From an uncultured Muribaculaceae bacterium (lineage in GTDB: Bacteria > Bacillota_I > Bacilli_A > RF39 > UBA660), in assembly GCA_964428195.1 (NCBI GenBank), contig CAYRXC010000020.1:1-15191 (forward strand): a DNA stretch of 15,191 nt, read 5' to 3'. The notes under the pieces are model-generated. The model saw only the letters and a program-made list of their open reading frames with translations. It made no database searches and was not told where the DNA came from. Shown one piece after another: positions 20 to 12,376 of this stretch; the first letter of the stretch is position 1; each line of letters starts with the position of its first letter. The position numbers and the translations under genes were made by a program.

Positions 20-49
20 TGCTAACCCTAGTGGTTGGCATTTTTTTTT
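20..49 (+). terminator. Candidate rho-independent terminator for a + strand gene lying left of the window
   Basis: 8-bp stem tgctaacc (20-27) / ggttggca (33-40) with one G-U pair and a 5-nt loop ctagt, followed directly by a T9 run (41-49). Pairing is better in the + strand transcript (G-U) than in the - strand transcript (C-A mismatch). Reading frames 2 and 3 hit stop codons at 7-9 and 15-17 just upstream. Confidence 0.45.
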
Positions 50-121: not shown

Positions 122-1363
122 CTAATGATTTCTATTACTTTTCAATAATTTTTTACTTTGAATTTGTGATCGATATATTTCATTAATATCAACAAAAATA
201 TAATTAATGTTTTTCACATTATCAATACTAAATTCAAATTGTTTACCAACTCTTGGATTGATAAAGTGATGTTCATAATCCCCAATAATAATCCATAAAA
301 TACCGGGACAATGTTCAGGAAAATTTCCATACCCATCTGTTATAATAATCTTATTGTCAACATTTTTTGAAAAACTATTAACCATTATGGAAAAATCAGT
401 TCCACAACGACCCTCGATTTTCAGTCTATCTATATCATCTTCAGTTTTTATTTGATTCCAACCATAAAACACTTGATCACAAAATCCAACTTTTATACAA
501 CTGCACAATAACATGTTTTTACATTCGCGTAGAACCGCTTTAATCAAATTAATACTCATTGATCCACTACTATCGATTACTATTTCGCTATCTGAAACGT
601 CTTCAATTGATTTAGTTTCTTTTTTTATAATACCATCCATTTGAATTTCAAAATAAGATGAAGAATCTTGTGGAGTATAAATACTTGATTCAAATAAATC
701 TTGCCATCTCAGTAGTGGAGAGGATCTTCCAACTGGAGCACTAGTAATCTCTTCTCCCTTTCCAAATATTTGACTCTTAGATTTATTGAATATACTTTCT
801 AGTTCACATTTATAATCTTCAAATAAATCTTGCTGTAATTTTTCATTATCTTCTAACAAATCAACAATGTTTTCAGAATATGAGCTTCTAATCATTTGCT
901 GTAACATTTCTGAAAGCTCACTTAAATCCATATGAAAAGTGTTTTCGCCCATCCACTGCTTTATAATTTTTAATTTTGGTAAATATTTCATATATAATTC
1001 ATCAACCGAATAATCAAGAGCATCTTCAATATTTACTAATCCTTCTGGCATAATCAATCCATTATGAACTAACAATTGATTAATAATTCCATCCTCTACA
1101 TAATTTAATAAATCTGGATCTTTCCCTTCATTTCTAAATAAATGGCTTAACACAATATGAAAAATTTCGTGTAATATTATGAACATTTTCTCATCATCAT
1201 TATAATTTTTTAAAAATTCATCTTTATAATAAATTCTTTTCCCATCAGTAAAGGCGGGGGCATTAACATTTTCACTTGTGTGTCTAAACTCTAAATTAAC
1301 AATAACATTTCCAAATAAAGGATATTTAAAAAGAATTTCTTTGATTATATTATTCAATTGCAT
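122..1363 (-). CDS. Two-domain protein: N-terminal zincin-like metallopeptidase (DUF2201_N type) plus C-terminal vWA-like domain (DUF2201 type)
   Basis: 413-aa ORF. HExxH motif HEIFH is encoded at 1157-1171, within FIILHEIFHIVLSHLFR, followed by LNYVEDGIINQLL, which resembles the family's downstream WN.A.D..iN segment. MIDAS-like DSSGS is encoded at 560-574, within VIDSSGSMS. The C-terminal pattern GRCGTDF...IIITDGYGNFP...ILWII is typical of the vWA-like half of this family. The ATG at 1361-1363 overlaps the upstream ATPase gene by 14 nt. Confidence 0.8.
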   Translation of the reverse strand: MQLNNIIKEILFKYPLFGNVIVNLEFRHTSENVNAPAFTDGKRIYYKDEFLKNYNDDEKMFIILHEIFHIVLSHLFRNEGKDPDLLNYVEDGIINQLLVHNGLIMPEGLVNIEDALDYSVDELYMKYLPKLKIIKQWMGENTFHMDLSELSEMLQQMIRSSYSENIVDLLEDNEKLQQDLFEDYKCELESIFNKSKSQIFGKGEEITSAPVGRSSPLLRWQDLFESSIYTPQDSSSYFEIQMDGIIKKETKSIEDVSDSEIVIDSSGSMSINLIKAVLRECKNMLLCSCIKVGFCDQVFYGWNQIKTEDDIDRLKIEGRCGTDFSIMVNSFSKNVDNKIIITDGYGNFPEHCPGILWIIIGDYEHHFINPRVGKQFEFSIDNVKNINYIFVDINEIYRSQIQSKKLLKSNRNH

Positions 1364-3188
1364 CTGGTACCAACTTTTTTACGTAAGAAGGATGTTTTTC
1401 TTTATATAGTTTCAGTATTCTTTGATCATAGCTTTTAGACCATTCATAATCAAACACAGCTAAAAATTCTTTTCCAAAGTTTTCTACAAAACTTCTTATT
1501 TTTTCAAAATGTTCATCATCAACAGTACTCAAACACAAAGCAGTAAACCATTTTATAGATGGATCTGTAGGAATTTGTTCCTTAGTACATCTATCATTTA
1601 TAATATCATCAATAGTAACTAATTGTAGCTTACAAAATTTAATAAAATCTTGAGTCATTTCCTCACCAATAAATGCACGAAGAACATTGGGATTATTACA
1701 TTGATACAAGGCTTTTGAAGCCATAGTCCATTTTCTTGGATCGCTGTTTGGTTTTATTCCATCATAAGGAGTTCTTAAAACTTTATCACCATTGATTGTT
1801 ATATAATCAATAATTGAGGGATGTATTTTTTTATTATCTTCTTGCTCCACATATTCTAAAACTCGACCTTCCTGTTTTCTTTTTAACGCCCATTTTAACC
1901 AATCGTTTGAATCAGTATCGAAATAAACATGAGCAAATCTACCAAATAGTGGTTCACTTAAACCACATGATGAACGCGATTCACTTGCTTCGTTACCCGC
2001 TCCGCAAACAACAGCGTTTTTTGGCAAATGTAATCTAAATCCGCTATTAGTAAGAGTCTTATTAAGTGCAACCTCAAACGCTACTTTCTGAACATCACTT
2101 TTTGCATTTGGTAATTCCTCAAAAAATAATATGTGAATCAATTCGGGATGTTCTTCACATTTTTTACAAAGATTTTTATACCAGTATGGTTCATAAAGAA
2201 ATAGTTCTTTAGAATTAAAATCCTTAGCAATAATTCCAGTAAAACCATCTGAACTAGTACAGCCAAAATCAATCAATTCTAAATCCTTGTCTAAAGATAT
2301 CATTCTTTCTGTTTTTCCAGTTCCAGTTTTTCCATGTAAAAATACCGCTATGTTACTTTTAATACAGACTTCTACGATTTCTTCTTCTGATAAACTACTA
2401 AAGTCAAAACCATATCTATTGCTTTCAATTTCTTCTTTTTCAAATGCAGAAGAAGGCTTTTTATGTTCTAATTCATCATTAATGCTCTTAAGAAAACCAT
2501 TATTCAAATATCTATTCAATTGACTATCAGAAAATTGAATATTACTATTATCAAAAGGTGAAGAAAGAACGCAAGGATAAGAATAGATAATGTTTTTATC
2601 AAAAACAAAAGGCACTTCTTCAACTTTAACATATATAATTTGATCTTTATTTGCAAATGTTCCATCTGATAACATTATTTTCCCAGCTTTATTTTGTATT
2701 TTTATAAATCTTATTCCTAATACTTCAAATTCTTCAAATAATTCATTATTTATATCATATTGTTTTCCTGTTTTAAACAATAATTTACTACGAGTTTGAA
2801 ACATTTTATCTATAGTTTTACCAACCATACCATTTATAGCTGTTTGCGGGAATTCTAAAACCATGTCATCAACTTGTGAATCTTTAAAATCTTCAATATC
2901 ACTTAAATTGACTACAATTCTAACCCCTCTTTTTTTATCATCGATATTCATACCATTTATGCATCCAGCTCTATTGATAGATTTTCTTGATCTCTGTTTT
3001 GGTTTGTTTTGAGATGGTAAACCATCAAACCAATACTCTCCAGTTCCTGTTGTTTCATCAAATGTATTACTTGTAATTCTTGCAAGATCAGAATATGTAC
3101 ACTCTAATCCTATGTTTTTTATAGTATCTAGTGCAAAATCACCACAAAGTTGTTCTTCGGTAAAAATGCCTATTTTTGTTATTTTCAT
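1350..3188 (-). CDS. MoxR/AAA_5-like AAA+ ATPase with an unassigned N-terminal module of about 290 aa and a C-terminal helical extension of about 200 aa
   Basis: Walker A HGKTGTGKT, with GKTGTGKT encoded at 2310-2333. Walker B-like HILFFEEL has EE in place of DE. Sensor-1-like VVCGAGNE and the MoxR-type PLFGRF arginine segment are present. I place the start at the ATG at 3186-3188 (MKITKIG...), because a GGGGGA Shine-Dalgarno (plus strand tccccc, 3194-3199) sits 5 nt upstream. The track's longer 630-aa version (to 3242) has no comparable RBS. Confidence 0.8.
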   Translation of the reverse strand: MKITKIGIFTEEQLCGDFALDTIKNIGLECTYSDLARITSNTFDETTGTGEYWFDGLPSQNKPKQRSRKSINRAGCINGMNIDDKKRGVRIVVNLSDIEDFKDSQVDDMVLEFPQTAINGMVGKTIDKMFQTRSKLLFKTGKQYDINNELFEEFEVLGIRFIKIQNKAGKIMLSDGTFANKDQIIYVKVEEVPFVFDKNIIYSYPCVLSSPFDNSNIQFSDSQLNRYLNNGFLKSINDELEHKKPSSAFEKEEIESNRYGFDFSSLSEEEIVEVCIKSNIAVFLHGKTGTGKTERMISLDKDLELIDFGCTSSDGFTGIIAKDFNSKELFLYEPYWYKNLCKKCEEHPELIHILFFEELPNAKSDVQKVAFEVALNKTLTNSGFRLHLPKNAVVCGAGNEASESRSSCGLSEPLFGRFAHVYFDTDSNDWLKWALKRKQEGRVLEYVEQEDNKKIHPSIIDYITINGDKVLRTPYDGIKPNSDPRKWTMASKALYQCNNPNVLRAFIGEEMTQDFIKFCKLQLVTIDDIINDRCTKEQIPTDPSIKWFTALCLSTVDDEHFEKIRSFVENFGKEFLAVFDYEWSKSYDQRILKLYKEKHPSYVKKLVPDAIE

Positions 3189-3270
3189 ATTAATCCCCCA
3201 TAAATTGTCAATTATGCTATCATAAATGCGTTTTTTTTTCAACTTAATACACTTTCATTAATTAAATTAT

Positions 3271-3299
3271 AAAAATCAATTCATATAGAATTGATTTTT
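3271..3299 (-). terminator. Hairpin terminator ending the NAD operon; potentially bidirectional
   Basis: Perfect 12-bp inverted repeat aaaaatcaattc (3271-3282) / gaattgattttt (3288-3299) with loop atata. A-run and T-run arms give a U-tract on either strand. It lies 36 nt past the nrtR stop (3335) and upstream of the ATPase gene start (3188). The stem is AT-rich with only 2 G-C pairs, so strength is uncertain. Confidence 0.6.
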
Positions 3300-3334: not shown

Positions 3335-4150
3335 TTAATGCTTATATTTAAATAATACAGAAGGTCTATGTCCTCCACCAGTTTTAATTTTATCTGTTGC
3401 TTTAACTTTATTTGCAATTATTCTTCTAAAAGCTGGATCTAATAATTTCCTTCCAAGTATTATTTCGTATACTTGTTGCAATTCTCCCAATGTGAAGAAT
3501 TCTGGCATCATATTAAAAACTATGTCTGTATATTCTAATTTGTTTTTTAATCTTGATATTCCTGATGCAATTACAATAGAGTGATCAAATGCAATATTAT
3601 TATTGCCTTCTTCAATATACTTGTATCTATCAGTTGTTTTTTCATAAAGTATTTTTTTTATTTTTAAATCAATTATTTCCTCTCCGTTATCAAGCTTAAT
3701 AAAAATATTGTTCTTATTTTCAGTATAGTTTATATTAAACCACGAAGCATTACTTGCAAGTTTTCCATTTAACTTTGTCTTGTCAATGAGAGCCATATAC
3801 GACGTACTAACTATTCTCATTCTAGGATCGCGATTTACTTCTCCAAAAGTATATAATTGTTCTAAATATAAATCTTTTAATTTCGTTTCATTTTCTAAAA
3901 TTCTTTTTGGAGCATCATCCAAGTTCTCATCTATTTTTATAAATCCCCCAGGTAAGCACCATTTATCTTTAAATGGATAATCATCCCTTTTTACTAATAA
4001 TACAGAAAAATACTTTTCATTAAGTTTTCTATAACTTTCTTTCTCTCCATTTGAAACACTAAATATAAGTATATCTGCAGTCATTGATAGTTTTTCATAT
4101 CTATTTGAATCATAAGCTTTTAGAAATTCTTCTTCATTTTTATAATTCAT
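3335..4150 (-). CDS. nrtR: NrtR-family Nudix-related transcriptional regulator of NAD metabolism: degenerate Nudix domain plus C-terminal winged helix
   Basis: 271 aa. The Nudix box is present but degenerate, G FIKID E NLDDAPK R ILENETKL versus canonical Gx5Ex7REUxEExGU (RE to RI, EE to NE, G to K). The C-terminal segment FTLGELQQVYEIILGRKLLDPAFRRII...HRPSVLFKY matches the NrtR wHTH pattern. It sits inside a NAD salvage cluster. RBS AAGGGG lies upstream of the ATG at 4148-4150. Confidence 0.85.
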   Translation of the reverse strand: MNYKNEEEFLKAYDSNRYEKLSMTADILIFSVSNGEKESYRKLNEKYFSVLLVKRDDYPFKDKWCLPGGFIKIDENLDDAPKRILENETKLKDLYLEQLYTFGEVNRDPRMRIVSTSYMALIDKTKLNGKLASNASWFNINYTENKNNIFIKLDNGEEIIDLKIKKILYEKTTDRYKYIEEGNNNIAFDHSIVIASGISRLKNKLEYTDIVFNMMPEFFTLGELQQVYEIILGRKLLDPAFRRIIANKVKATDKIKTGGGHRPSVLFKYKH

Positions 4151-4151
4151 A

Positions 4152-6143
4152 TTAACCCCTTTCTATTACTATTATACAAGTACTATTTGGCAGTTTTACT
4201 ATCTTCATATTTTCATCGTATATTGTGATTTTATTTAATAAATTCTCTTCATACCCACTTTGAAGGAAAGCTTTAAATTCAATGATTTTGGAATTTTGTA
4301 AATTATCTTCAATTAAATCAATATACTCAGAAGGTGTTAGGTATCCAAATTGTTCTTGTACTTCCAATGAGTATGAATTCTCTCCCCAAGTATAAGTATA
4401 CAAAAATTCCATAGCATCATTTACATACATTTTTACTTTGTTTTCATCTACTCTTTCATATGATATATTTCTACCTTTAAAATCTATGCAATAATTATCT
4501 AAAATATCGATATCACTTTTATTTTTAAACTCGATAACTCGATATTGATCTGTGGGTTCGGTTTTTATTCCATCTCTTATTATTATTCTTCCACCCTTTG
4601 GGATAATATTATATGCTGACTTAAGAGTTTTAATTACTGTATCGATATTGAATTTTTCTCCATTATATTCAATATATGAGAAAAGTTCATGTATTATCGA
4701 AGAATAGATAATTGTATCGATGCTTCCTTTATTGAAATACTTTTCTAAATATAGCGCATCTCCCTCTATAATTCCCCATTTTCTTTGTTCAACTGCTTTT
4801 CTCTTATTTAGTGCTTCTATAACATTTTTTGATATATCTATTCCGATTACATTTAAAGTATTATTCGATTCCTCAATTAAATCGAGCAATATCCCTCCGC
4901 CTGGGCCAACATCTAATACATTTTTTCCTACAATATAATCTAATAATATTTTTTTGTTATTAAATGATGCATTCATAACATTTAAGTAATTTATTTCATT
5001 ATAAAATCTATCATACTTATCCCTTCTAAATCCAAATAAGTCATATAGAATATATACTGCTTTGTTATATAAAGAATTACTTGTGTATGCAACCTCACAA
5101 AATTCAATTAGTTTTGAAGCTTGGATAGAAAATACAAAGTTAAATAAGAAAGTATTATTTTTATTAGTAATGTCAAATCTGATATGAGGATTAGTCTTAA
5201 TGTTACTATTTATTATATCTTCAAAGCTTAACTCTCCAAGCATATTTTCTATTATTCTTTTTTTATAAATATTTACTATCTTTTTTTCCTTATAATCAAA
5301 ATATATGTTTTTCATTAGTTTTTCAAAAGAAATGTGCCCTACTTCCTTAACATTTGCTGAAATATACAATAGTATTTTAGTTTTTTCTATTATACTAAAA
5401 TCCTTTAATGCTCCTTCATAATACCAAAGCTCTAAATTATTAAAAACTTTTAAGAGAGCGTCCTTAATGTATGATTTATCTATAATTTGGATTTCTTCAT
5501 CTGTTGCTCTTTTATTCAATCTTTTGAATCTTTTCATTACGTCTATTTTCTCTTCAAAATCATTATTAATTATTTTTTCAATCGAAGATAGTATTTCATC
5601 TTTGATAGATTCATATAATTTATCTGACACCGGTCTAATAACACATTCATTTAATACAATCAAGACTTCTTTAAGCAAATCTTTAGCAATCAAATTTCTT
5701 TCTATTAATAAATATAAATCTTTATTTATGCTTAGATTGACTTCTCCCCTTATATATTGACCAATTAAACCATGTGTTTTTATTAATACTCTTACAACTT
5801 CATCATAATCTTTATTTTCTAAGCAATATATTTGAGAAGATCCAATATTATGGACATTCATATCAAAACCATTTTTTATCCATTTTTTTCTATCAGCTTT
5901 TGACCCAGTCTTTGCAACTTCAGTCCATTTTAAAGTTTCGGCAACATAATAATACACTTTTCCAGTGGGTTTTATTTTTTCCAATACCTCAAAAGAATCA
6001 ACAACATAATTATATACTAAACTACTAGATAGTTCAGACAATGACTTAATTCTTTCATAATTATAATTCTTTTCTCTAGTGTTAACTAAGAAACCAATCC
6101 AGTTTAAATCAATCTTATTTTTTAAAGCTTCAAGTTCTTTCAT
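4152..6143 (-). CDS. Orphan 663-aa fusion: unassigned N-terminal region of about 400 aa, class I SAM-dependent methyltransferase core, and a C-terminal extension of about 100 aa
   Basis: SAM-binding motif I VLDVGPGGG is encoded at 4893-4919. It is followed by NVIGIDIS (motif II-like acidic residue) and IIYSSIIHE and GGRIIIRD, the usual Rossmann methyltransferase order. I recognise no family for residues 1-400. RBS AGAGG lies upstream of the ATG at 6141-6143. The stop is 1 nt from the nrtR ATG. Confidence 0.7.
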   Translation of the reverse strand: MKELEALKNKIDLNWIGFLVNTREKNYNYERIKSLSELSSSLVYNYVVDSFEVLEKIKPTGKVYYYVAETLKWTEVAKTGSKADRKKWIKNGFDMNVHNIGSSQIYCLENKDYDEVVRVLIKTHGLIGQYIRGEVNLSINKDLYLLIERNLIAKDLLKEVLIVLNECVIRPVSDKLYESIKDEILSSIEKIINNDFEEKIDVMKRFKRLNKRATDEEIQIIDKSYIKDALLKVFNNLELWYYEGALKDFSIIEKTKILLYISANVKEVGHISFEKLMKNIYFDYKEKKIVNIYKKRIIENMLGELSFEDIINSNIKTNPHIRFDITNKNNTFLFNFVFSIQASKLIEFCEVAYTSNSLYNKAVYILYDLFGFRRDKYDRFYNEINYLNVMNASFNNKKILLDYIVGKNVLDVGPGGGILLDLIEESNNTLNVIGIDISKNVIEALNKRKAVEQRKWGIIEGDALYLEKYFNKGSIDTIIYSSIIHELFSYIEYNGEKFNIDTVIKTLKSAYNIIPKGGRIIIRDGIKTEPTDQYRVIEFKNKSDIDILDNYCIDFKGRNISYERVDENKVKMYVNDAMEFLYTYTWGENSYSLEVQEQFGYLTPSEYIDLIEDNLQNSKIIEFKAFLQSGYEENLLNKITIYDENMKIVKLPNSTCIIVIERG

Positions 6144-6155
6144 ATTGACCTCTTT

Positions 6156-6623
6156 CTAAAATATTTTATCTTTGAATAACTCAATAATACTACTTAGAAT
6201 ATACTCTTTATTATCTTTTCTATTGTTATATTTGGCTTTTAATAATGAAGTAATATATGTATTCTTATCTCTATCATAAATGCATATAAATATATCATCA
6301 TCATTTCCAACTTCATTATTTTTATCAACTTTATTTAACTTTCCAGTTATTCCCAAACCATAATTTGAAAGGGTAAAATCAGAAATAGCTTTTGCCATTT
6401 CCTTTGCTGTTTCAATGCTGTAAACAGAATGCTTTTCTATAGTGTCCTTTGATACCCCAAACTTTATCTTATATTGATTGGAATATGCAACAATGCCAAA
6501 TTTAAAAACATCACTAGCGCCCTCTACATTTGTAATTGAATTAGCAATAAATCCCCCCGAACAAGATTCCATTGTTGAAATTGTGAGTTCATTCTTTTTT
6601 AAGAATTCAACTATTTCTTTCAT
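6156..6623 (-). CDS. pncC: Nicotinamide-mononucleotide amidohydrolase (stand-alone CinA C-terminal / PncC domain)
   Basis: 155 aa. STMESCSGGFIANSITNVEGASDVFKFGIVAYSNQYKIKFGV...YSIETAKEMA matches the CinA_C signature (ESCTGG...pG.S..f.gG.V.Ys...K...lgV). AGGAG RBS lies 6 nt before the ATG. Confidence 0.85.
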   Translation of the reverse strand: MKEIVEFLKKNELTISTMESCSGGFIANSITNVEGASDVFKFGIVAYSNQYKIKFGVSKDTIEKHSVYSIETAKEMAKAISDFTLSNYGLGITGKLNKVDKNNEVGNDDDIFICIYDRDKNTYITSLLKAKYNNRKDNKEYILSSIIELFKDKIF

Positions 6624-6630
6624 AATACTC

Positions 6631-7680
6631 CTACTTCCATATAGTATCTATATTAAACTTTTCTTTTATTATATTTTTCGATTCATTAAATCTCTCTAAG
6701 TAATTACCTTTTAAACTAATATATTTTATATTATGATTTTCTAATAATCTTTTAATTTGATTACTATATTTATTTCTATTATTATTTATTTTTTCATTTC
6801 TAGTGCCATCTTGAACAAATTCTACAGTTGGTTCTAGGAATAAAACCAAATCAAAGTCATTGATTGAAGAAATGGCATTTGCTAGTTTTTCACATTGTTG
6901 TTTTTCTTTTTTATCTTTTAATAGTAATTTTGAGTAAAAAAGAGTTGTAATTGCATCTGTATCAATAAAAAGCACCTTATTACTATTAAATACTGAATCG
7001 ATTTCCATAACTTTTTGTTTTAATAATATCTCTATTAAATCCTCTTTATTCATGAAATCTTCGCCGCCTGCTATATCGCATACATCTCTTCCCACTTCTT
7101 TAATAAAATTCGTGTTATATGCAATAGCCAAATTTTCTACTAAAGTTGTCTTTCCAGTACTCTCTCCTCCAACTACTAATACCTTTTTCACATAATATGG
7201 TCTACAAATAGGAGGTATATAATCCCAATTTTTATATACATCAAATCTTAATTCAGTAGAACTAATTGGAACTTCACTTCGATCAAAATATATTATATCA
7301 CTTTGATCTCCATATAAACTTTCAAATCTATTTGAACCTTTATAATCACTTCCACAAAATACAGCATCAATTTTTTTTCCAATTATTTTTTTTATGTCCT
7401 TTGCACCTTTTTCCCAATAATAATCAGTATTATAATCTTCCTTGCTTACCGCTTTATCTTCTAACATCTTTATTATAACATTATTTAAGTGTTTACAACT
7501 ATTATGCAACCATCTATATCTCATTTCTTTTGATGTAGATTCCCTTCCTTCGCACCAACTTATAACAACATAAAGAGTCTTGCACATAGAAGCTGCTCTT
7601 ATAACATCGTGAATATGGCCAATGTGTAAAGGATCAAATGAACCACCATACATTCCTATTTCATATATTTGATTTTTCAT
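6631..7680 (-). CDS. nadR: Bifunctional NadR-type NMN adenylyltransferase / ribosylnicotinamide kinase, with no N-terminal HTH
   Basis: Nucleotidyltransferase (H/T)xGH motif is present in GMYGGSFDPLHIGH, with ISSTELR later. A second domain carries the P-loop VVGGESTGKTTL. I place the start at the ATG at 7678-7680 (MKNQIYEIGMYGG) because GGAG lies 9 nt upstream. The track's longer start (7716) lies deep inside pnuC. The chosen start still overlaps the pnuC 3' end by 20 nt. Confidence 0.8.
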   Translation of the reverse strand: MKNQIYEIGMYGGSFDPLHIGHIHDVIRAASMCKTLYVVISWCEGRESTSKEMRYRWLHNSCKHLNNVIIKMLEDKAVSKEDYNTDYYWEKGAKDIKKIIGKKIDAVFCGSDYKGSNRFESLYGDQSDIIYFDRSEVPISSTELRFDVYKNWDYIPPICRPYYVKKVLVVGGESTGKTTLVENLAIAYNTNFIKEVGRDVCDIAGGEDFMNKEDLIEILLKQKVMEIDSVFNSNKVLFIDTDAITTLFYSKLLLKDKKEKQQCEKLANAISSINDFDLVLFLEPTVEFVQDGTRNEKINNNRNKYSNQIKRLLENHNIKYISLKGNYLERFNESKNIIKEKFNIDTIWK

Positions 7681-8341
7681 ATAATTTGCTCCAGTTATAA
7701 TATCCATAAAACGCATTAAACAAATATACTATCCACATTGTAACCATAATATAATCACTTACCAACAACCACATAATAACAGTTATAATATCAATTATTA
7801 TCCATAACAACCATTGTTCTCTATATCTTGCTAGCATTAATACATTAGCAAATAATGAAATAAAGGTTGATGCACTATCTAATAGAGTGTTGTTTCCCCC
7901 TAAGTAGTCTAGAGACATTTTTAATATAAATATGCCAATAGTACAGGTTATCAAAAATAGTATTGTTTGTTTTAAGCTCATTTTTTTGCTTATTACGGTG
8001 TTAGACTTCTTATTTATATTTTTATTCCATAAGTAGTATCCAATAAACTGTGATGGTAAATAATATAAAGCATTTAGTATTACTTCTCCATAATATTTAT
8101 TTATATATGCAATAATTACATATCCAATAATATTAAATAATCCCCAAATATATTGGCTTTTTTTCCCTTTTGCACAGAGAACTACACAAAATATTCCCGA
8201 AATAGCAGCAATTGAATTGATCAATAAATATATAATTGAATTTTCTTTATCAGTAATCGAAAATACTAACGTAAAAATTATGACAGTTAATATCATTAAC
8301 CACTCAATAACGTTAAATCTTTTTATTAGATTAACTATCAT
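7661..8341 (-). CDS. pnuC: Nicotinamide riboside transporter PnuC
   Basis: 226 aa, multi-pass hydrophobic. Typical PnuC segments are LCAKGKKSQYIWGLFNIIGY and a C-terminal W-rich repeat (REQWLLWIIIDIITVIMW...NAFYGYYNW). AGGAGG RBS lies upstream of the ATG at 8339-8341. It is adjacent to nadR. Confidence 0.85.
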   Translation of the reverse strand: MIVNLIKRFNVIEWLMILTVIIFTLVFSITDKENSIIYLLINSIAAISGIFCVVLCAKGKKSQYIWGLFNIIGYVIIAYINKYYGEVILNALYYLPSQFIGYYLWNKNINKKSNTVISKKMSLKQTILFLITCTIGIFILKMSLDYLGGNNTLLDSASTFISLFANVLMLARYREQWLLWIIIDIITVIMWLLVSDYIMVTMWIVYLFNAFYGYYNWSKLYEKSNI

Positions 8342-8352
8342 AAATCCTCCTT

Positions 8353-8913
8353 TTAGTATAAATTATTATCTTTAATATATTTGATTACTTTTTCATCTAA
8401 AAATTTGTTTAATTCTTCTGTATTGTTATTAGTAATTAAATTTCTAATCTTTGTAGAAGAAACATCTACTGGTGAGTAATCTCTAACCATAATAAAATTC
8501 TCTTTATTCTCAAAGTTATTTATATATTGATTTAAATCTATTCCATTTCTATTCATTACTATTATTTTATTCAATAGTATTTTGTCAATATTCTTCCAAA
8601 GATGAAGATTAACTAAGTTATCATCTCCTATTATTAAGTAGATTTTTTCATAGTGTTTTTTTAATTCATCTATTACTTCATAAGTGTATTGAAAATTATT
8701 TAACTTATTATCAATAATAATATTTTCTGTTTCATATGTTCTAAGCATATTGATCCTATGAGATACATCAATTAAATCATTTTTATCCCAATAATTACCA
8801 GTTGGAATTATCATAACTTTATCAACATATTTTTTTTCTAGCAAGTAATTGACAACCTCAATATGTCCTTTATGAACCGGATTAAAACTTCCAACATATA
8901 TTCCTAATTTCAT
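8353..8913 (-). CDS. nadD: Nicotinate-nucleotide (NaMN) adenylyltransferase
   Basis: 186 aa. GIYVGSFNPVHKGH carries the (H/T)xGH motif, and the C-terminal VSSTKIRN carries the ISSTxxR motif. Size and layout are typical of NadD. A GGAGG RBS is present. Confidence 0.85.
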   Translation of the reverse strand: MKLGIYVGSFNPVHKGHIEVVNYLLEKKYVDKVMIIPTGNYWDKNDLIDVSHRINMLRTYETENIIIDNKLNNFQYTYEVIDELKKHYEKIYLIIGDDNLVNLHLWKNIDKILLNKIIVMNRNGIDLNQYINNFENKENFIMVRDYSPVDVSSTKIRNLITNNNTEELNKFLDEKVIKYIKDNNLY

Positions 8914-8914
8914 A

Positions 8915-9670
8915 TTACCTCCTATAAGTTGGCAAGTTAAATTTATGCTGATTATTATCGTGCATCTTTTTTATTTTTGTTGCAGTATCTTCATCAATTG
9001 ATGAAGGATCTTCGATATAAGCTGCAATTTCCTTATACTTGACTCCTAATTTATCTTCATCAGATAATTCAGACAATCCATCAGCTGGAGTTTTAAACAA
9101 TACTTCACTCGGAACATTTAATACTTTTCCAATTTCAATTACTTCATCTACTGTGAAATCTGCAATTGGAGAAATATCATATACTGAGTCTCCTCCTTTT
9201 GTAAAATATCCAACAAATAGTTCGCATTTATTTGAAGTACCCGCAACCAAGTATGTCTTTCCTTTTATAGATGAGAATAAAGCTGCCATATAATATAACG
9301 TAGACATTCTCAATCTTGGCTTTAAATTAATATCACTATTCTTTGTTGTATCTTTATCATAATTTCCAATATTTATTAATTCTTCTTTGAAATCATCAAA
9401 TACTTTTGTCAAATCAAAATTATATAGTTCAAATCCATAAAAATCACTAACTAACTTAGCATGGCTTCTATCTTCTTCTTTAGAATGACAAGGTAAAGTA
9501 AATCCAACCACATTCTCTTTTCCTAAAGCTTCAGTAAATAATCCAGCAACTACTCCCGAATCTTTTCCTCCGCTAATTCCTATAACAACTCCTCCAAGAT
9601 TATTTTTTTTGTAATATTCTCTAATGAACTTAACAATATTATCCTTTTCCTTTAAAGCATCAAATTTCAT
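8915..9670 (-). CDS. nadE: NH3-dependent NAD+ synthetase (short form, no glutaminase domain)
   Basis: 251 aa. PP-loop GISGGKDSGVV (SGGxDS). The rest fits the NadE pattern (LKPRLRM..LY..A; TSNK.E...GYFTKGGD). AGGAGG RBS is present, and the ATG overlaps the upstream Nudix gene by 4 nt. Confidence 0.9.
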   Translation of the reverse strand: MKFDALKEKDNIVKFIREYYKKNNLGGVVIGISGGKDSGVVAGLFTEALGKENVVGFTLPCHSKEEDRSHAKLVSDFYGFELYNFDLTKVFDDFKEELINIGNYDKDTTKNSDINLKPRLRMSTLYYMAALFSSIKGKTYLVAGTSNKCELFVGYFTKGGDSVYDISPIADFTVDEVIEIGKVLNVPSEVLFKTPADGLSELSDEDKLGVKYKEIAAYIEDPSSIDEDTATKIKKMHDNNQHKFNLPTYRR

Positions 9671-10266
9671 ATTTTCCTCCTCTTAATATATGGAATAGCT
9701 TTAGTCAAAGCTAATTTAGAATTTGCTCCAACCAAATATTTTCTTTTTTCAAATTCTAATAATTCTTCTAAATTTAATAATAATTCTCTAACATATTCTG
9801 ACTCATCTAACTTTTGCTCTTCTTTTTTCTCACATCCAAATGCTACGAATATATGATTATACGCAGAGCTACAGCCTTCATCTTGATAAAACGAATCAAT
9901 TTCAATTATGTCTTCAGGTATATATCCAGTCTCTTCAACAAGTTCTCTTAAAGCTGCTTTAATTGGTTCTTCGCCTTTTTCAATATATCCCGCCGGAAAT
10001 CCCAATGCAACAGTATCTTTAGTAAATACTCTAGGTTCTATTACAGAAACAATTTCTCTATTCCTTGTAATTGCAACTATTATTACCGCATTCCCGTCAC
10101 TATCATTTTTGATTATTTTTTCTCTTAGTATTGTTTTACCATTGTTTAGTACTATTTCATACGGTTCAATATTTATAAATTTAGATTGATCTCTTTTTTT
10201 AAACTCTATTGTTTTAAACTCTTCATAATATTTTAATAAAAGATCAATCTTTTCTTGTCTTACCAT
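9667..10266 (-). CDS. Catalytically intact Nudix hydrolase, probably an ADP-ribose pyrophosphatase
   Basis: 199 aa. Canonical Nudix box G YIEKG E EPIKAAL RELVEETGY matches Gx5Ex7REUxEExGU. The ADP-ribose substrate is inferred from context and the overall NudF-like size, not from diagnostic residues. The RBS is weak. The gene overlaps the pncB 3' end by 7 nt. Confidence 0.7.
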   Translation of the reverse strand: MVRQEKIDLLLKYYEEFKTIEFKKRDQSKFINIEPYEIVLNNGKTILREKIIKNDSDGNAVIIVAITRNREIVSVIEPRVFTKDTVALGFPAGYIEKGEEPIKAALRELVEETGYIPEDIIEIDSFYQDEGCSSAYNHIFVAFGCEKKEEQKLDESEYVRELLLNLEELLEFEKRKYLVGANSKLALTKAIPYIKRRKI

Positions 10267-11714
10267 TTCAATGCCTTAACTTTTCCTTTCCCATTTACAA
10301 TATCATATATCATATCTTTTTTAAGTTGCATTAAATTTTGAGATAAATCTACATAATATCCATGAGGATTATTTTTTCTTTTTATCTCGGGATATATCTT
10401 TGCAAATTCATTTGCACAGTAGCTTCTTGTTTCTTTTGCGCTCGGTACTTTGTACACTTGTTTTCCATCAATAAATATTGGAACTCTTATATCTTTAATT
10501 GTATAATTTGATATAGTTTTTTGCTTCCATTCTTCAGTAGGATGCACTAAAGTATATTGATCTTTTGGTAATTCTTCATCATTTAATGCTATAACATCAG
10601 CTAAAGCGTATCCAGTTTGATTATCAAAGAATCTATATAATTTTTTATATCCCGGATTAGTTGTTTTTATTGTGTCATTGCTTAACTTAATCTTTGGAAA
10701 TATTTCTTTTTCTTTTTCAATAGCAACTAATTTATATACTCCACCAACTCTTTCCTTTGAAGCAGAGATATTATCTCCAACTCCTAAGGAATCAAATTTT
10801 GCTCCTTGATCAGTTAATGATCTTATTACATCTTCATTCAAACTATTTGACAAAGTTATCTTTGCATTAGGATATCCAGCTTCATCCAACATTTTTCTTG
10901 CTTCTATTGACAAATAAGCTAAATCGCCGCTATCAATTCTAATCCCTTTGAATACTAATCCATTTGGTTCCAAATACTCTCTTGCTACTCTTATTGCGTT
11001 TGGTATACCGCTTTTTAAAGTATCATAGGTGTCTACTAAAAATAAACAATTATTAGGATTGCTTTTTGCATATTCTAAAAATGCTTCATATTCACTATCT
11101 GCATCTGACACCATACTATGAGCCATAGTTCCCATAACAGGAATGTCATATTTCTTTCCCGATAATACATTACTAGTGCCAACACAACCACCAATATATC
11201 CATATTTGCTTGCTTCTATTGCAGAATCAATTCCTCTTGCTCTTCTAGCTCCGAATTCCATAACGGGAACTTCTTTTGCTGCATCTGTAATTCTTTTTGC
11301 TGCTGTTGTTACAAGTGTTCCATGGTTAAAATTTGCTAATATTGCAGTTTCTATTATTTGTGCTTCTATTATGTTTGCTCTTACGGTTATTACTGGCTCA
11401 TTGGGAAATACTGGGGTTCCATCTGGGACAGCATATATATCCCCATTAAATTTGAGATTTTTTAAATAATTTAAATATTCATCATTAAATAGTTCCAACG
11501 TTCTCAAGTATTCAATATCTTCTTCAGTGATTTTAAAATTGTTGATGTATTCAACAATATTATCTATTCCACTAGATATTGTATAACCACTATCGAAAGG
11601 ATTGCTTCTAAAGAATACATCAAAATATGCTATTCTATCCTTTTCTCCCTTATCAAAATATGTTTGACCCATTGTTAATTCATATAAATCTGTCATCAAA
11701 GTATTATTTTCCAT
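10260..11714 (-). CDS. pncB: Nicotinate phosphoribosyltransferase (long Firmicute-type PncB)
   Basis: 484 aa. N-terminal LMTDLYELTMGQTYF and central FGARRARG...GTSN...MGTMAHS are hallmark NAPRTase segments. GGAGG RBS is present. The ATG shares one base with the pncA stop (TAATG at 11712-11716). Confidence 0.9.
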   Translation of the reverse strand: MENNTLMTDLYELTMGQTYFDKGEKDRIAYFDVFFRSNPFDSGYTISSGIDNIVEYINNFKITEEDIEYLRTLELFNDEYLNYLKNLKFNGDIYAVPDGTPVFPNEPVITVRANIIEAQIIETAILANFNHGTLVTTAAKRITDAAKEVPVMEFGARRARGIDSAIEASKYGYIGGCVGTSNVLSGKKYDIPVMGTMAHSMVSDADSEYEAFLEYAKSNPNNCLFLVDTYDTLKSGIPNAIRVAREYLEPNGLVFKGIRIDSGDLAYLSIEARKMLDEAGYPNAKITLSNSLNEDVIRSLTDQGAKFDSLGVGDNISASKERVGGVYKLVAIEKEKEIFPKIKLSNDTIKTTNPGYKKLYRFFDNQTGYALADVIALNDEELPKDQYTLVHPTEEWKQKTISNYTIKDIRVPIFIDGKQVYKVPSAKETRSYCANEFAKIYPEIKRKNNPHGYYVDLSQNLMQLKKDMIYDIVNGKGKVKALKW

Positions 11715-12304
11715 TATTTTCCTCCATATCTTTTTACAAGCTTAATACCAGCTTGATTCATCAATTTAAATGCCATGTCGTTGTATTCTCCTCTGTTATG
11801 AAATGGTGCATCGTATGTTTCAACAGCATTCATTGGAACAACTATTTCAACATCTCTATTGTTTTGATCAAAATAGTTTTGTTGTGGTATCACTAAATTT
11901 AAAACACATATATCTGTACAACATCCAACGACTACTATCTCTTCTAATTTTTTCATTCTCTCTATATCACTTAAATATCTTTCTGCAAACAGTGCACTAG
12001 TAGAATTTTTCTCATATACCAAAGAACTTTCTTCAAATGGTTTAAGTTCATCAACCAATTCCGACTCTGAAGTTCCAATTTCACAATGTTCCGGATATCT
12101 TTTAAATTCTCTAGAATTCTTGTTATGAGAGTCTTTTATGAACGCTACTCCATCTCCTTTTTCTATAAATTCCTTAATTAGTCTTAACTGCTCTGGTATT
12201 ATCTTTGCTATTTCTTTATCTGCCATCTTGCCTTCTTTAACAAATCCATTAACCATGTCTACAACAATAAGTAATCTCTTTAATTCTTCTAATCCTTTTA
12301 TCAT
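11714..12304 (-). CDS. pncA: Nicotinamidase (isochorismatase-fold PncA)
   Basis: LIVVDMVNGF carries the catalytic Asp strand, DSH...PEHC is a metal-site-like segment, and VVVGCCTDICV carries the catalytic Cys motif. I place the start at the ATG at 12302-12304 (MIKGLEEL..., 196 aa) because AAGGAGG (12310-12316) lies 5 nt upstream. The track's 220-aa version would start inside the promoter. Confidence 0.85.
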   Translation of the reverse strand: MIKGLEELKRLLIVVDMVNGFVKEGKMADKEIAKIIPEQLRLIKEFIEKGDGVAFIKDSHNKNSREFKRYPEHCEIGTSESELVDELKPFEESSLVYEKNSTSALFAERYLSDIERMKKLEEIVVVGCCTDICVLNLVIPQQNYFDQNNRDVEIVVPMNAVETYDAPFHNRGEYNDMAFKLMNQAGIKLVKRYGGK

Positions 12305-12319
12305 ATATACCTCCTTTTT

Positions 12320-12333
12320 AGATAGAATTATCT
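12320..12333. promoter_or_regulatory. Second small palindrome AGATA-N4-TATCT in the pncA leader
   Basis: agata gaat tatct at 12320-12333, between the predicted transcription start and the RBS (12310-12316). The arms are short (5 bp) in AT-rich DNA, so it could be chance. Confidence 0.2.
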
Positions 12334-12337
12334 CTTC

Positions 12338-12348
12338 TGTTATTAACA
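12338..12348. promoter_or_regulatory. Candidate operator: 11-bp palindrome TGTTA-T-TAACA abutting the -10 box and covering the predicted transcription start
   Basis: tgttattaaca at 12338-12348 is a perfect inverted repeat around a central T, and its last base is also the last base of the -10 hexamer. Assigning it to NrtR is inference only. I cannot recall a matching published NrtR consensus. Confidence 0.3.
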
Positions 12349-12376
12349 TTATATTAAAAACAATTGTGTTTGTCAA
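12348..12376 (-). promoter_or_regulatory. Consensus sigma-A/sigma-70 promoter of the NAD operon
   Basis: Read on the minus strand, TTGACA (12371-12376), exactly 17 nt of spacer, then TATAAT (12348-12353). The predicted 5' UTR to the pncA ATG is about 35-40 nt. Confidence 0.7.

Follow-up and report, generated by a model that had tools for sequence, protein, structure and literature searches.

What does a two-gene cassette do that encodes an AAA+ ATPase and a zincin metallopeptidase fused to a von Willebrand factor A (vWA) domain, and does its place beside an operon for nicotinamide adenine dinucleotide (NAD) salvage mean anything? The question is raised by a 15,191-nt stretch of contig CAYRXC010000020.1, from an uncultured low-GC organism. 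This whole stretch is called the window in what follows, and in its list of open reading frames (ORFs) both cassette genes are present on the minus strand, the ATPase at 1350-3242(-) and its partner at 122-1363(-). As judged by homology, the cassette is a long form of the gp24/gp25 pair of phage N4, in which the ATPase carries a large additional N-terminal domain. This extra domain is the target of a diversity-generating retroelement in sister lineages, and the likeliest reading is therefore an invader-sensing system: we propose, with a probability of about 0.5, that the cassette is a conflict or defence module composed of a sensor, an AAA+ motor and a protease. The main rival to this interpretation is an element-serving role inherited from phages, followed by that of a housekeeping chaperone. 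A link to NAD+ metabolism, as had been suggested, can be set aside.

A candidate sensor domain and its diversification in a sister clade

Clustering of the ORFs across homologous loci (labelled L001, L002 and so on) separates two versions of the cassette. The clade of the window has the ATPase gene and then the zincin-vWA gene; in the sister clade, a protein of ~133 aa is encoded between the two in 48 loci (e.g. L012:3423-3824). This protein, which the window clade does not have, shows a weak AAA match (E-value (E) 0.0087) over the region from Walker B to sensor-1, and no P-loop. Across 80 species-level loci, two families recur directly upstream of the sister-clade ATPase, namely a 195-aa bAvd-like protein (13 loci; E 8e-6) and a 350-aa reverse transcriptase of the RVT_1 family (16 loci; E 7e-18). 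Between the bAvd-like and RVT_1 genes lies a template repeat of ~80 nt, and the variable repeat is located ~190-270 nt into the ATPase gene, within the N-terminal domain. Template/variable repeat pairs were found in 11 loci, L048 (7945-12312), L049, L051, L055, L058, L066, L073, L076, L079, L090 and L092, and 126 of their 148 mismatches fall at template adenines. A pattern scan of metagenome contigs added 46 further variable-repeat stretches. Among contigs with near-identical flanks, a first group has 23 variable columns in the 80 nt of the repeat, compared with 1 and 4 in the 100-nt flanks, and a second group has 19 in the repeat, compared with 6 and 3 in the flanks. The variable repeat is thus hypervariable between near-identical metagenome contigs, and the variation is active.

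The residues encoded by the variable repeat, such as 'DARAVNLHGTRHWIDISKRSVGSRPALPY' (L048 residues 85-113), align with residues ~67-95 of the window ATPase (2904..2990, minus strand), a segment that is modelled as short beta strands (69-71, 77-79, 87-89 and 92-94). When the window ATPase's N-terminal domain and that of L048 are compared alone, they are homologous (BLASTP E 2e-11). It is thus the same N-terminal domain that, in the sister clade, carries the retroelement's variable repeat. The sensor-like domain guessed at in the original prediction consequently gains strong indirect support, the homologous domain being a retroelement target.

In the window, this candidate ligand-binding or sensor domain comprises ~250 residues (2439..3188, minus strand) and is DUF6273-related. 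That the ATPase has an extra N-terminal region had been pointed out before; the region is indeed present and measures ~250-270 residues, N4 gp24 (352 aa) and phrog_1297 (356 positions) aligning only to ATPase residues ~272-606. Modelled alone with AlphaFold2 (AF2), the domain is compact, with a predicted local distance difference test (pLDDT) of 90.4 and a predicted template modelling (pTM) score of 0.88. It is presumably cytoplasmic, because no hydrophobic signal or membrane segment is obvious at the ATPase N-terminus (MKITKIGIFTEEQL). No structural match to the model was found by Foldseek in the PDB (best E 0.075) or in BFVD (best E 0.17), and the profile of the domain gave only chance matches to PDB sequences. 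Within the two-gene clade, the segment equivalent to the repeat has a pairwise identity of 0.33, the neighbouring 51-66 loop one of 0.31 and the rest of the domain 0.42-0.46, compared with 0.80 in the AAA core; by this measure the N-terminal domain evolves much faster than the motor in the clade of the window.

The domain belongs to a very large, mostly unannotated superfamily in which no solved structure was detected. Against 1.84 billion representative proteins, its profile matched 3,522 clusters at 50% identity, including 709 at E <= 1e-30. Many of the best 150 matches are standalone proteins of 260-340 aa, tandem duplicates or longer fusions, the last including ankyrin, BspA leucine-rich repeat (LRR), pentapeptide and DUF4116 regions (proteins P0121-P0268). 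Among 59 longer relatives, five have ankyrin repeats, one has BspA-type LRRs and five match DUF6273 (best E 2.1e-7). The window ATPase itself matches DUF6273 at E 0.066 and over residues 233-261 only, and the segment order of its domain appears to be permuted relative to the Pfam DUF6273 model.

Further observations concern the integrity and the number of the sister-clade ATPase genes. In-frame reading shows TAA and TGA codons within the L048 and L079 template repeats. Six of the 11 retroelement assemblies, L079 (8594-8676), L058 (10216-10295), L073 (10213-10295), L049, L051 and L066, have an ATPase ORF that is interrupted at the variable repeat, and the break in L079 is an in-frame TGA. Such breaks could reflect an ON/OFF switch operated by hypermutation, or they could be an artefact that arises when mixed variants are assembled into a consensus. 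A reading of TGA as Trp (genetic code 4) was also considered for the split genes and is unlikely, since the remaining gene parts are read through under code 11. Tandem ATPase paralogues are frequent in the sister clade, and paralogous long-form genes stand in tandem in L044, L056, L063, L064, L068 and L087-L089; in L110, L112, L131, L136 and L140, two matches to the variable-repeat pattern lie ~3.0-3.1 kb apart, so that two consecutive copies each have a variable repeat. This arrangement suggests that one retroelement may diversify two tandem ATPase sensors in several contigs.

Motor, partner and the phage N4 gp24/gp25 pair

The rest of the cassette has counterparts in phages. The ATPase matches phrog_1297 over residues 288-606 (E 1.2e-42), and N4 gp24 aligns end to end with its residues 272-594 (BLASTP 2e-13). 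The product of the neighbouring gene, gp25 (380 aa), has a zincin that aligns with the partner (BLASTP E 4e-13), which itself matches phrog_1314 over its full length (E 2.3e-34). With both proteins falling to phrog_1297 and phrog_1314, the gene order gp24-gp25 is the same as that of the cassette, and on this evidence we regard the cassette as a long form of the N4 pair. The pairing of a zincin-vWA protein with a MoxR ATPase, which the original prediction had taken to be uncharacterised, is accordingly already in the literature for phages: a 'MoxR AAA+, vWA with N-terminal metallopeptidase' pair of jumbo phages has been described (Iyer et al, 2021; PMC7824862). At the DNA level, the cassette had no match in the phage and plasmid collections, and literature searches for 'DUF2201' returned incidental mentions only. 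Neither the long form with a DUF6273-like N-terminal domain nor its retroelement targeting on the ATPase was found in the literature searched.

The AAA+ core of the ATPase (residues ~271-440; 1869..2378, minus strand) contains Walker A GKTGTGKT (2333-2310), Walker B ILFFEE (2132-2115), the sensor-1 residue N399 (1992-1994) and R417 in a 'GRF' segment (1938-1940), all at the positions first assigned to them; G291, K292, E358, N399 and R417 are invariant among 38 ATPase homologues. These motifs conform to the MoxR/AAA_5 pattern (GxxGxGK[ST], hhhh[DE]E, a sensor-1 Asn and an Arg in '[DG]RF'). The EE of Walker B had been singled out as unusual. It is specific to the window clade, the sister clade and N4 gp24 having DE, and the comparison indicates a conservative D-to-E change at the level of the clade; as a significant feature it was rejected. 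The AF2 model of the ATPase has a pLDDT of 84.8, and in the PDB Foldseek matches it best to MCM subunits and to NorQ of the NorQD complex (E ~1e-8 to 1e-9; for NorQ, 9qhd_A, E 1.3e-8 and TM-target 0.51). These matches place the motor in the helix-2-insert clade (MoxR/NorQ/MCM). Its catalytic residues are intact.

The partner begins with a zincin metallopeptidase domain (residues 10-125; 989..1336, minus strand), which matches DUF2201_N at E 3.8e-21 and 76.4 bits (threshold 23.2). Its HExxH motif, HEIFH, corresponds to residues 65-69 (nt 1171-1157), and D91 (1091-1093) is likely to be the third zincin ligand. The second domain (residues 261-362; 278..583, minus strand) is vWA-like and has a complete metal ion-dependent adhesion site (MIDAS), made of D264-S-S266-G-S268 (nt 574-560, the DxSxS motif), T322 (398-400) and D343 (335-337). 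The coordinates predicted for the HExxH (1157-1171) and MIDAS (560-574) motifs proved exact, and both are conserved in 74 partner homologues, at >=98% for H65, E66, H69 and D91 and at >=90% for the five MIDAS residues. The match to DUF2201 (E 2.1e-5, 25.0 bits) is slightly under the 26.4-bit cut-off, which homologues of the partner exceed (e.g. 50.4 bits). Peptidase_M48 is also matched (E 3.9e-4), and the zincin of one sister-clade partner has weak SprT-like (E 0.0055) and M48 (E 0.0042) matches. In a separate matter of annotation, phrog_1314 carries the label 'HNH endonuclease'; nothing in the partner protein backs that label, which looks like an annotation error that could propagate.

AAA_5, DUF2201_N and DUF2201 had been expected from a Pfam search. 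DUF2201_N was recovered, but DUF2201 and AAA_5 stayed under their cut-offs: the ATPase has no Pfam match at E <= 0.01, and AAA_5 reaches E 0.039 and 14.4 bits (cut-off 22) over residues 300-436. Precomputed PF07728 matches are present on several ATPase homologues. Sequence searches with both cassette proteins gave no match in the PDB and nothing meaningful in NCBIfam.

Distribution and genomic neighbourhoods

The full-length homologues recovered in a protein search with the ATPase number ~80 in the range of 46-66% identity, below which a second tier lies at 28-40%. In a scan of one genome per species, 389 relatives were found, and the best 80 are nearly all from metagenome-assembled genomes (MAGs) of uncultured Bacilli, Erysipelotrichales, Anaeroplasma and 'Tenericutes'. 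Of 94 loci examined, 84 also encode the zincin-vWA partner. The flanks are variable: the 90 proteins encoded beside window-clade cassettes include no Pfam family with more than four occurrences, and the 88 immediate sister-clade neighbours, which lay outside the PADLOC scan, are unrelated and mostly housekeeping, with a maximum of three per family. Since the pair is conserved and its flanks vary, the module is autonomous and sits at many different positions; the self-contained two-gene cassette of the original prediction holds in this respect, and the module is horizontally mobile.

Genes for a relaxase, an integrase or a recombinase are present in three distinct loci, which represent small integrative or mobilisable elements. 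In L006, a Mob_Pre relaxase and a serine recombinase are encoded near the cassette; in L013 and L028 the accompanying genes are for a tyrosine integrase and a RepA-like ATPase, and L013 has in addition a SWI2/SNF2 helicase and an N6 methyltransferase. Further homologous loci lie among ordinary chromosomal genes. Homologues are therefore not always found in housekeeping or cofactor-insertion contexts, although no statistical association with defence islands, the setting that had been envisaged, was shown in these hosts, which are nearly all represented by fragmentary MAGs. A prophage or virion-assembly role for the window copy was considered and rejected, there being no structural or lysis genes nearby. 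As a side observation, another protein of ~130 aa, with no Pfam match, is encoded specifically beside element-borne cassettes. Its gene is directly upstream in L006 (9498-9896), L007, L013 (7497-7898) and L014; in L028 it is downstream and on the other strand, and it is absent from the window.

Gene boundaries, insulation and the adjoining NAD operon

The window has a G+C content of ~27%, and as far as 12.4 kb almost everything in it lies on the minus strand. As called mechanically, the ATPase ORF reaches a TTG at 3242; the likely start is the ATG at 3188-3186, preceded by a GGGGGA box at 3199-3194. Translation from this ATG yields a product of 612 aa (1350..3188, minus strand) that exactly matches the protein called in public assemblies (P0001). 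This long-form MoxR-class (AAA_5-like) AAA+ ATPase is followed by the 413-aa zincin-vWA partner (DUF2201_N plus DUF2201; 122..1363, minus strand). The stop codon of the first gene (1350-1352) and the ATG of the second (1363-1361) produce an overlap of 14 nt (1350..1363, minus strand), as had been noted from the sequence, and an overlap of 11-14 nt was found again in the homologous loci with gene calls that were examined. From this overlap and its recurrence, coupled expression is a reasonable inference, and the arrangement suggests that the second gene may be translationally coupled to the first.

The cassette had also been described as insulated by two terminator-like hairpins, and this stands for one of them. 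The hairpin at 3271..3299 (minus strand), with a 12-bp stem and a U-tract (-12 kcal/mol, z -4.8), is a convincing AU-rich intrinsic terminator of the upstream NAD/nrtR operon, parting that operon from the cassette. The hairpin at 20-40 (terminator feature 20..49, plus strand), in contrast, has its U-tract on the plus strand and is oriented as a terminator for a convergent plus-strand gene beyond the window; on the strand of the cassette it is weak (-6.7 kcal/mol, z -0.5) and would act at best as a weak bidirectional stop. A consensus scan proposes a sigma-70-type promoter for the cassette at 3214..3242 (minus strand; TTGAAA, 17-nt spacer, TG-TAGCAT), with 9 of 12 matches, a level of agreement that is no commoner here than in shuffled sequence. 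The convergent neighbour lies just past window position 1 (L001:10705-11943) and encodes a 408/412-aa protein with no Pfam or PADLOC match, followed by an ABC-F-type ATPase gene. Transfer RNA and Rfam scans of the window found nothing, and so provide no integration-site or riboswitch clue.

Upstream of the cassette, a complete NAD salvage and regulation operon (3335..12376, minus strand) was delineated with Pfam and NCBIfam, which assign a NUDIX gene, the NAD synthase gene nadE, a cytidylyltransferase-like (nadD-like) gene, the NMN transporter gene pnuC, a nadR-like gene, a CinA gene, a methyltransferase gene and NrtR. From reading of the translations, we take two further genes to be pncA (11714-12376) and pncB (10260-11714). 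The nadR ORF start (7716) overlaps pnuC by 56 nt, and gene callers choose a later start (349 aa). The methyltransferase (4152-6143(-)) is a 663-aa class I protein dependent on S-adenosylmethionine (NCBIfam PRK06922, E 1e-207), encoded between the CinA/PncC-like gene and nrtR. Adjacency of NAD genes to the cassette is confined to L001-L005, which represent the window's own organism. The linkage that had been thought possibly meaningful recurs as adjacent genes in none of the other loci examined, and the nrtR terminator parts the two units; it was rejected for lack of recurrence in the neighbourhood survey, and the NAD neighbourhood looks like a coincidence.

Interpretation

We propose that the N-terminal domain would bind a specific ligand; the most plausible candidate is a protein or another molecule from an invading phage or plasmid. 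The hexameric ATPase would engage the vWA partner, on the model of NorQ-NorD and CbbQ-CbbO, and ATP-driven remodelling would license the zincin to cleave its target. The substrate may be the partner itself or a protein of the host or of the invader, and the result would be a block to replication or abortive infection. The window version would have a fixed, germline-encoded sensor, with relatives diversifying theirs by reverse transcription. By analogy, this logic would match that of MoxR-vWA systems with retroelement-diversified C-type-lectin sensors, for which a role as conflict systems or antigen sensors has been put forward (PMC7159879, PMC10907252). More tentatively, and as a proposition that we hold somewhat less firmly, the cassette may be a retroelement-less member of an undescribed immune family, widespread in gut Bacilli, that joins a cytoplasmic antigen sensor, an AAA+ motor and a zincin-vWA protein, was exapted from a gp24/gp25-type phage pair and has its ATPase-fused sensor hypermutated in the sister clade.

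Several results weigh against a sensor of invaders in the window. No reverse transcriptase is present in its ORF list, template-like repeats within it are AT-rich chance repeats only, and no reverse transcriptase lies within 10 kb of the cassette in the window clade. The identical 612-aa ATPase occurs on 13 contigs, and from all of this it follows that the window copy is not being diversified. Its aromatic motifs, in degenerated form, read YWF and GVRIVV rather than WWW and GxRPAL, and this, taken with the missing retroelement and the invariant protein, means that the N-terminal domain may bind a constant, even cellular, ligand. A C-type-lectin fold (Mtd/TvpA-like) was not recovered for the domain by Foldseek, so that the published C-type-lectin similarity of DUF6273 is not confirmed for it. 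The two cassette proteins match no PADLOC-DB 2.0 family at E <= 0.01. The neighbourhoods in both clades point the same way through the absence of any frequently recurring family: the flanks in the window clade are housekeeping genes (GyrB, GH94, short-chain dehydrogenases) together with Cro/C1 helix-turn-helix (HTH), RhuM/Fic, Bro-N and AAA_25/DnaB_C genes, of which only a few (RhuM/Fic, Bro-N, HTH) are associated with defence or mobile genetic elements. Finally, the short-form relatives closest to the cassette belong to the core gene set of lytic phages, from which a pro-viral ancestral role can be argued.

The explanation that survives best beside the conflict module is one that we nevertheless consider unlikely. 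The cassette would be an element-serving module retained from a phage or integrative element, for takeover, counter-defence, establishment or particle assembly, and its ATPase and zincin-vWA protein would remodel or cleave host or element proteins, as with N4 gp24/gp25. In its favour, a tblastn search with the ATPase found short-form homologues in 181 phage records, the N4-like ones being middle genes, and on 13 plasmids, of which seven are predicted to be conjugative; close long-form homologues lie inside the small elements with relaxase, integrase and Rep-like genes; and a role as virion-assembly chaperone and protease was proposed for the jumbo-phage pair by Iyer et al (PMC7824862). However, the window and most other loci have no phage structural, integrase or transfer genes nearby, and a diversified cytoplasmic domain fits changing foreign ligands better than an assembly role, even if counter-defence against variable host factors may be compatible with it.

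Less probable still is a housekeeping MoxR-vWA chaperone or maturase dedicated to one client, in the manner of NorQ/NorD, CbbQ/CbbO, CoxD/CoxE or RavA/ViaA, with the zincin processing that client. An ATPase fold of this type with a vWA-MIDAS partner is the NorQD design, and many sister-clade loci are situated among housekeeping genes. No client gene is conserved beside the pair in about 170 flanking proteins, however, and the position of the cassette differs in almost every locus examined, sometimes on mobile elements; tandem paralogue expansions and retroelement hypermutation are also atypical of maturases.

It is improbable that the two proteins form a protease-unfoldase pair that removes proteins bound covalently or tightly to DNA, analogous to SprT/Wss1-Cdc48 or to an ArdC-like zincin. 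Such an activity would be useful to phages and conjugative elements, and the occurrence of the family in phages and in plasmids predicted to be conjugative is consistent with it, as are the weak SprT-like and M48 matches of the sister-clade zincin and the Peptidase_M48 match of the window partner; yet the SprT-like and M48 matches do not reach the family thresholds, a DNA-binding domain was not found, and the hypermutated binding domain on the ATPase would be left unexplained. The proposal that the cassette is tied to NAD+ salvage, countering NAD depletion or regulating NAD enzymes by proteolysis, can draw on its place directly downstream of nrtR at the end of a complete operon and on L073, where NadD and NrtR are encoded six genes upstream of the retroelement-cassette block, but it is essentially excluded by an adjacency restricted to L001-L005 among the loci examined and by the strong terminator and separate candidate promoter between the units.

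If the proposal of such an immune family is correct, adaptive-like receptor diversification would extend to bacteria that are not known to be multicellular, and the stop-codon-prone template codons would possibly constitute an ON/OFF switch. The sister-clade retroelement suggests hypermutation, in gut Bacilli, of a cytoplasmic sensor joined to a MoxR-type motor, and the fixed-sensor copy of the window and its hypermutating relatives offer a natural direct comparison. A cellular version with a recognisable sensor domain would also provide a handle on the role of the gp24/gp25-type pair, which is common in phages and present in plasmids.

Comparison with known systems

The nearest known relatives of the cassette, N4 gp24/gp25, phrog_1297/1314 and the jumbo-phage pair, resemble it in both homologous proteins, in gene order and in their pairing. 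They differ in that the N4-type phage ATPases, at ~350 aa, do not have the 250-residue N-terminal domain, and in that the phage pairs are found in middle-gene or replication regions of lytic phages, whereas that of the window lies on the chromosome of an uncultured low-GC organism, and its homologues come almost entirely from gut Bacilli MAGs. The chaperone pairs NorQ/NorD, CbbQ/CbbO, RavA/ViaA and BchI/BchD likewise combine a helix-2-insert AAA+ ATPase with a vWA-MIDAS adaptor. Only in the cassette, in contrast to these MoxR-vWA pairs, does the vWA protein include an intact zincin and the ATPase a binding domain; the cassette has no linked client gene, and its AAA_5 match is sub-threshold.

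For the N-terminal domain, the comparison is with DUF6273, a published C-type-lectin-like target of the diversity-generating retroelements of gut phages (PMC10743442, PMC11792537). The superfamily of the domain overlaps DUF6273, to which the tentaclins and the Faecalibacterium prophage targets belong, and the variable repeat of tentaclins is also near the 5' end, in an N-terminal domain. Tentaclin-type proteins, however, are extracellular or virion receptor-binding proteins fused to immunoglobulin (Ig) domains, whereas the domain described here is fused to an ATPase.

There is a likeness in logic to the ternary vWA-MoxR (VMAP) conflict systems with retroelement-diversified C-type-lectin/FGS sensors (Kaur et al, 2020; Dore et al, 2024), with which the cassette shares a MoxR ATPase, a vWA protein and a peptidase, and the sister clade also a hypermutated cytoplasmic domain. 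The arrangement of the parts is different. The variable lectin domain of VMAP systems is C-terminal on the vWA protein, and that of the cassette family is N-terminal on the ATPase; the effector is on a separate VMAP protein in the former, whereas the peptidase of the cassette is fused to the vWA protein, with no VMAP-like third gene and, in the neighbourhood survey, no conserved third gene linked to the cassette in the window or its clade. The window copy also differs from VMAP systems with retroelement-diversified sensors in being without any retroelement. As to their hosts, such diversifying nucleoside triphosphatase (NTPase) conflict systems have so far come mainly from multicellular cyanobacteria, actinobacteria and proteobacteria, and the cassette family, found in MAGs of uncultured gut Bacilli, would broaden this picture.

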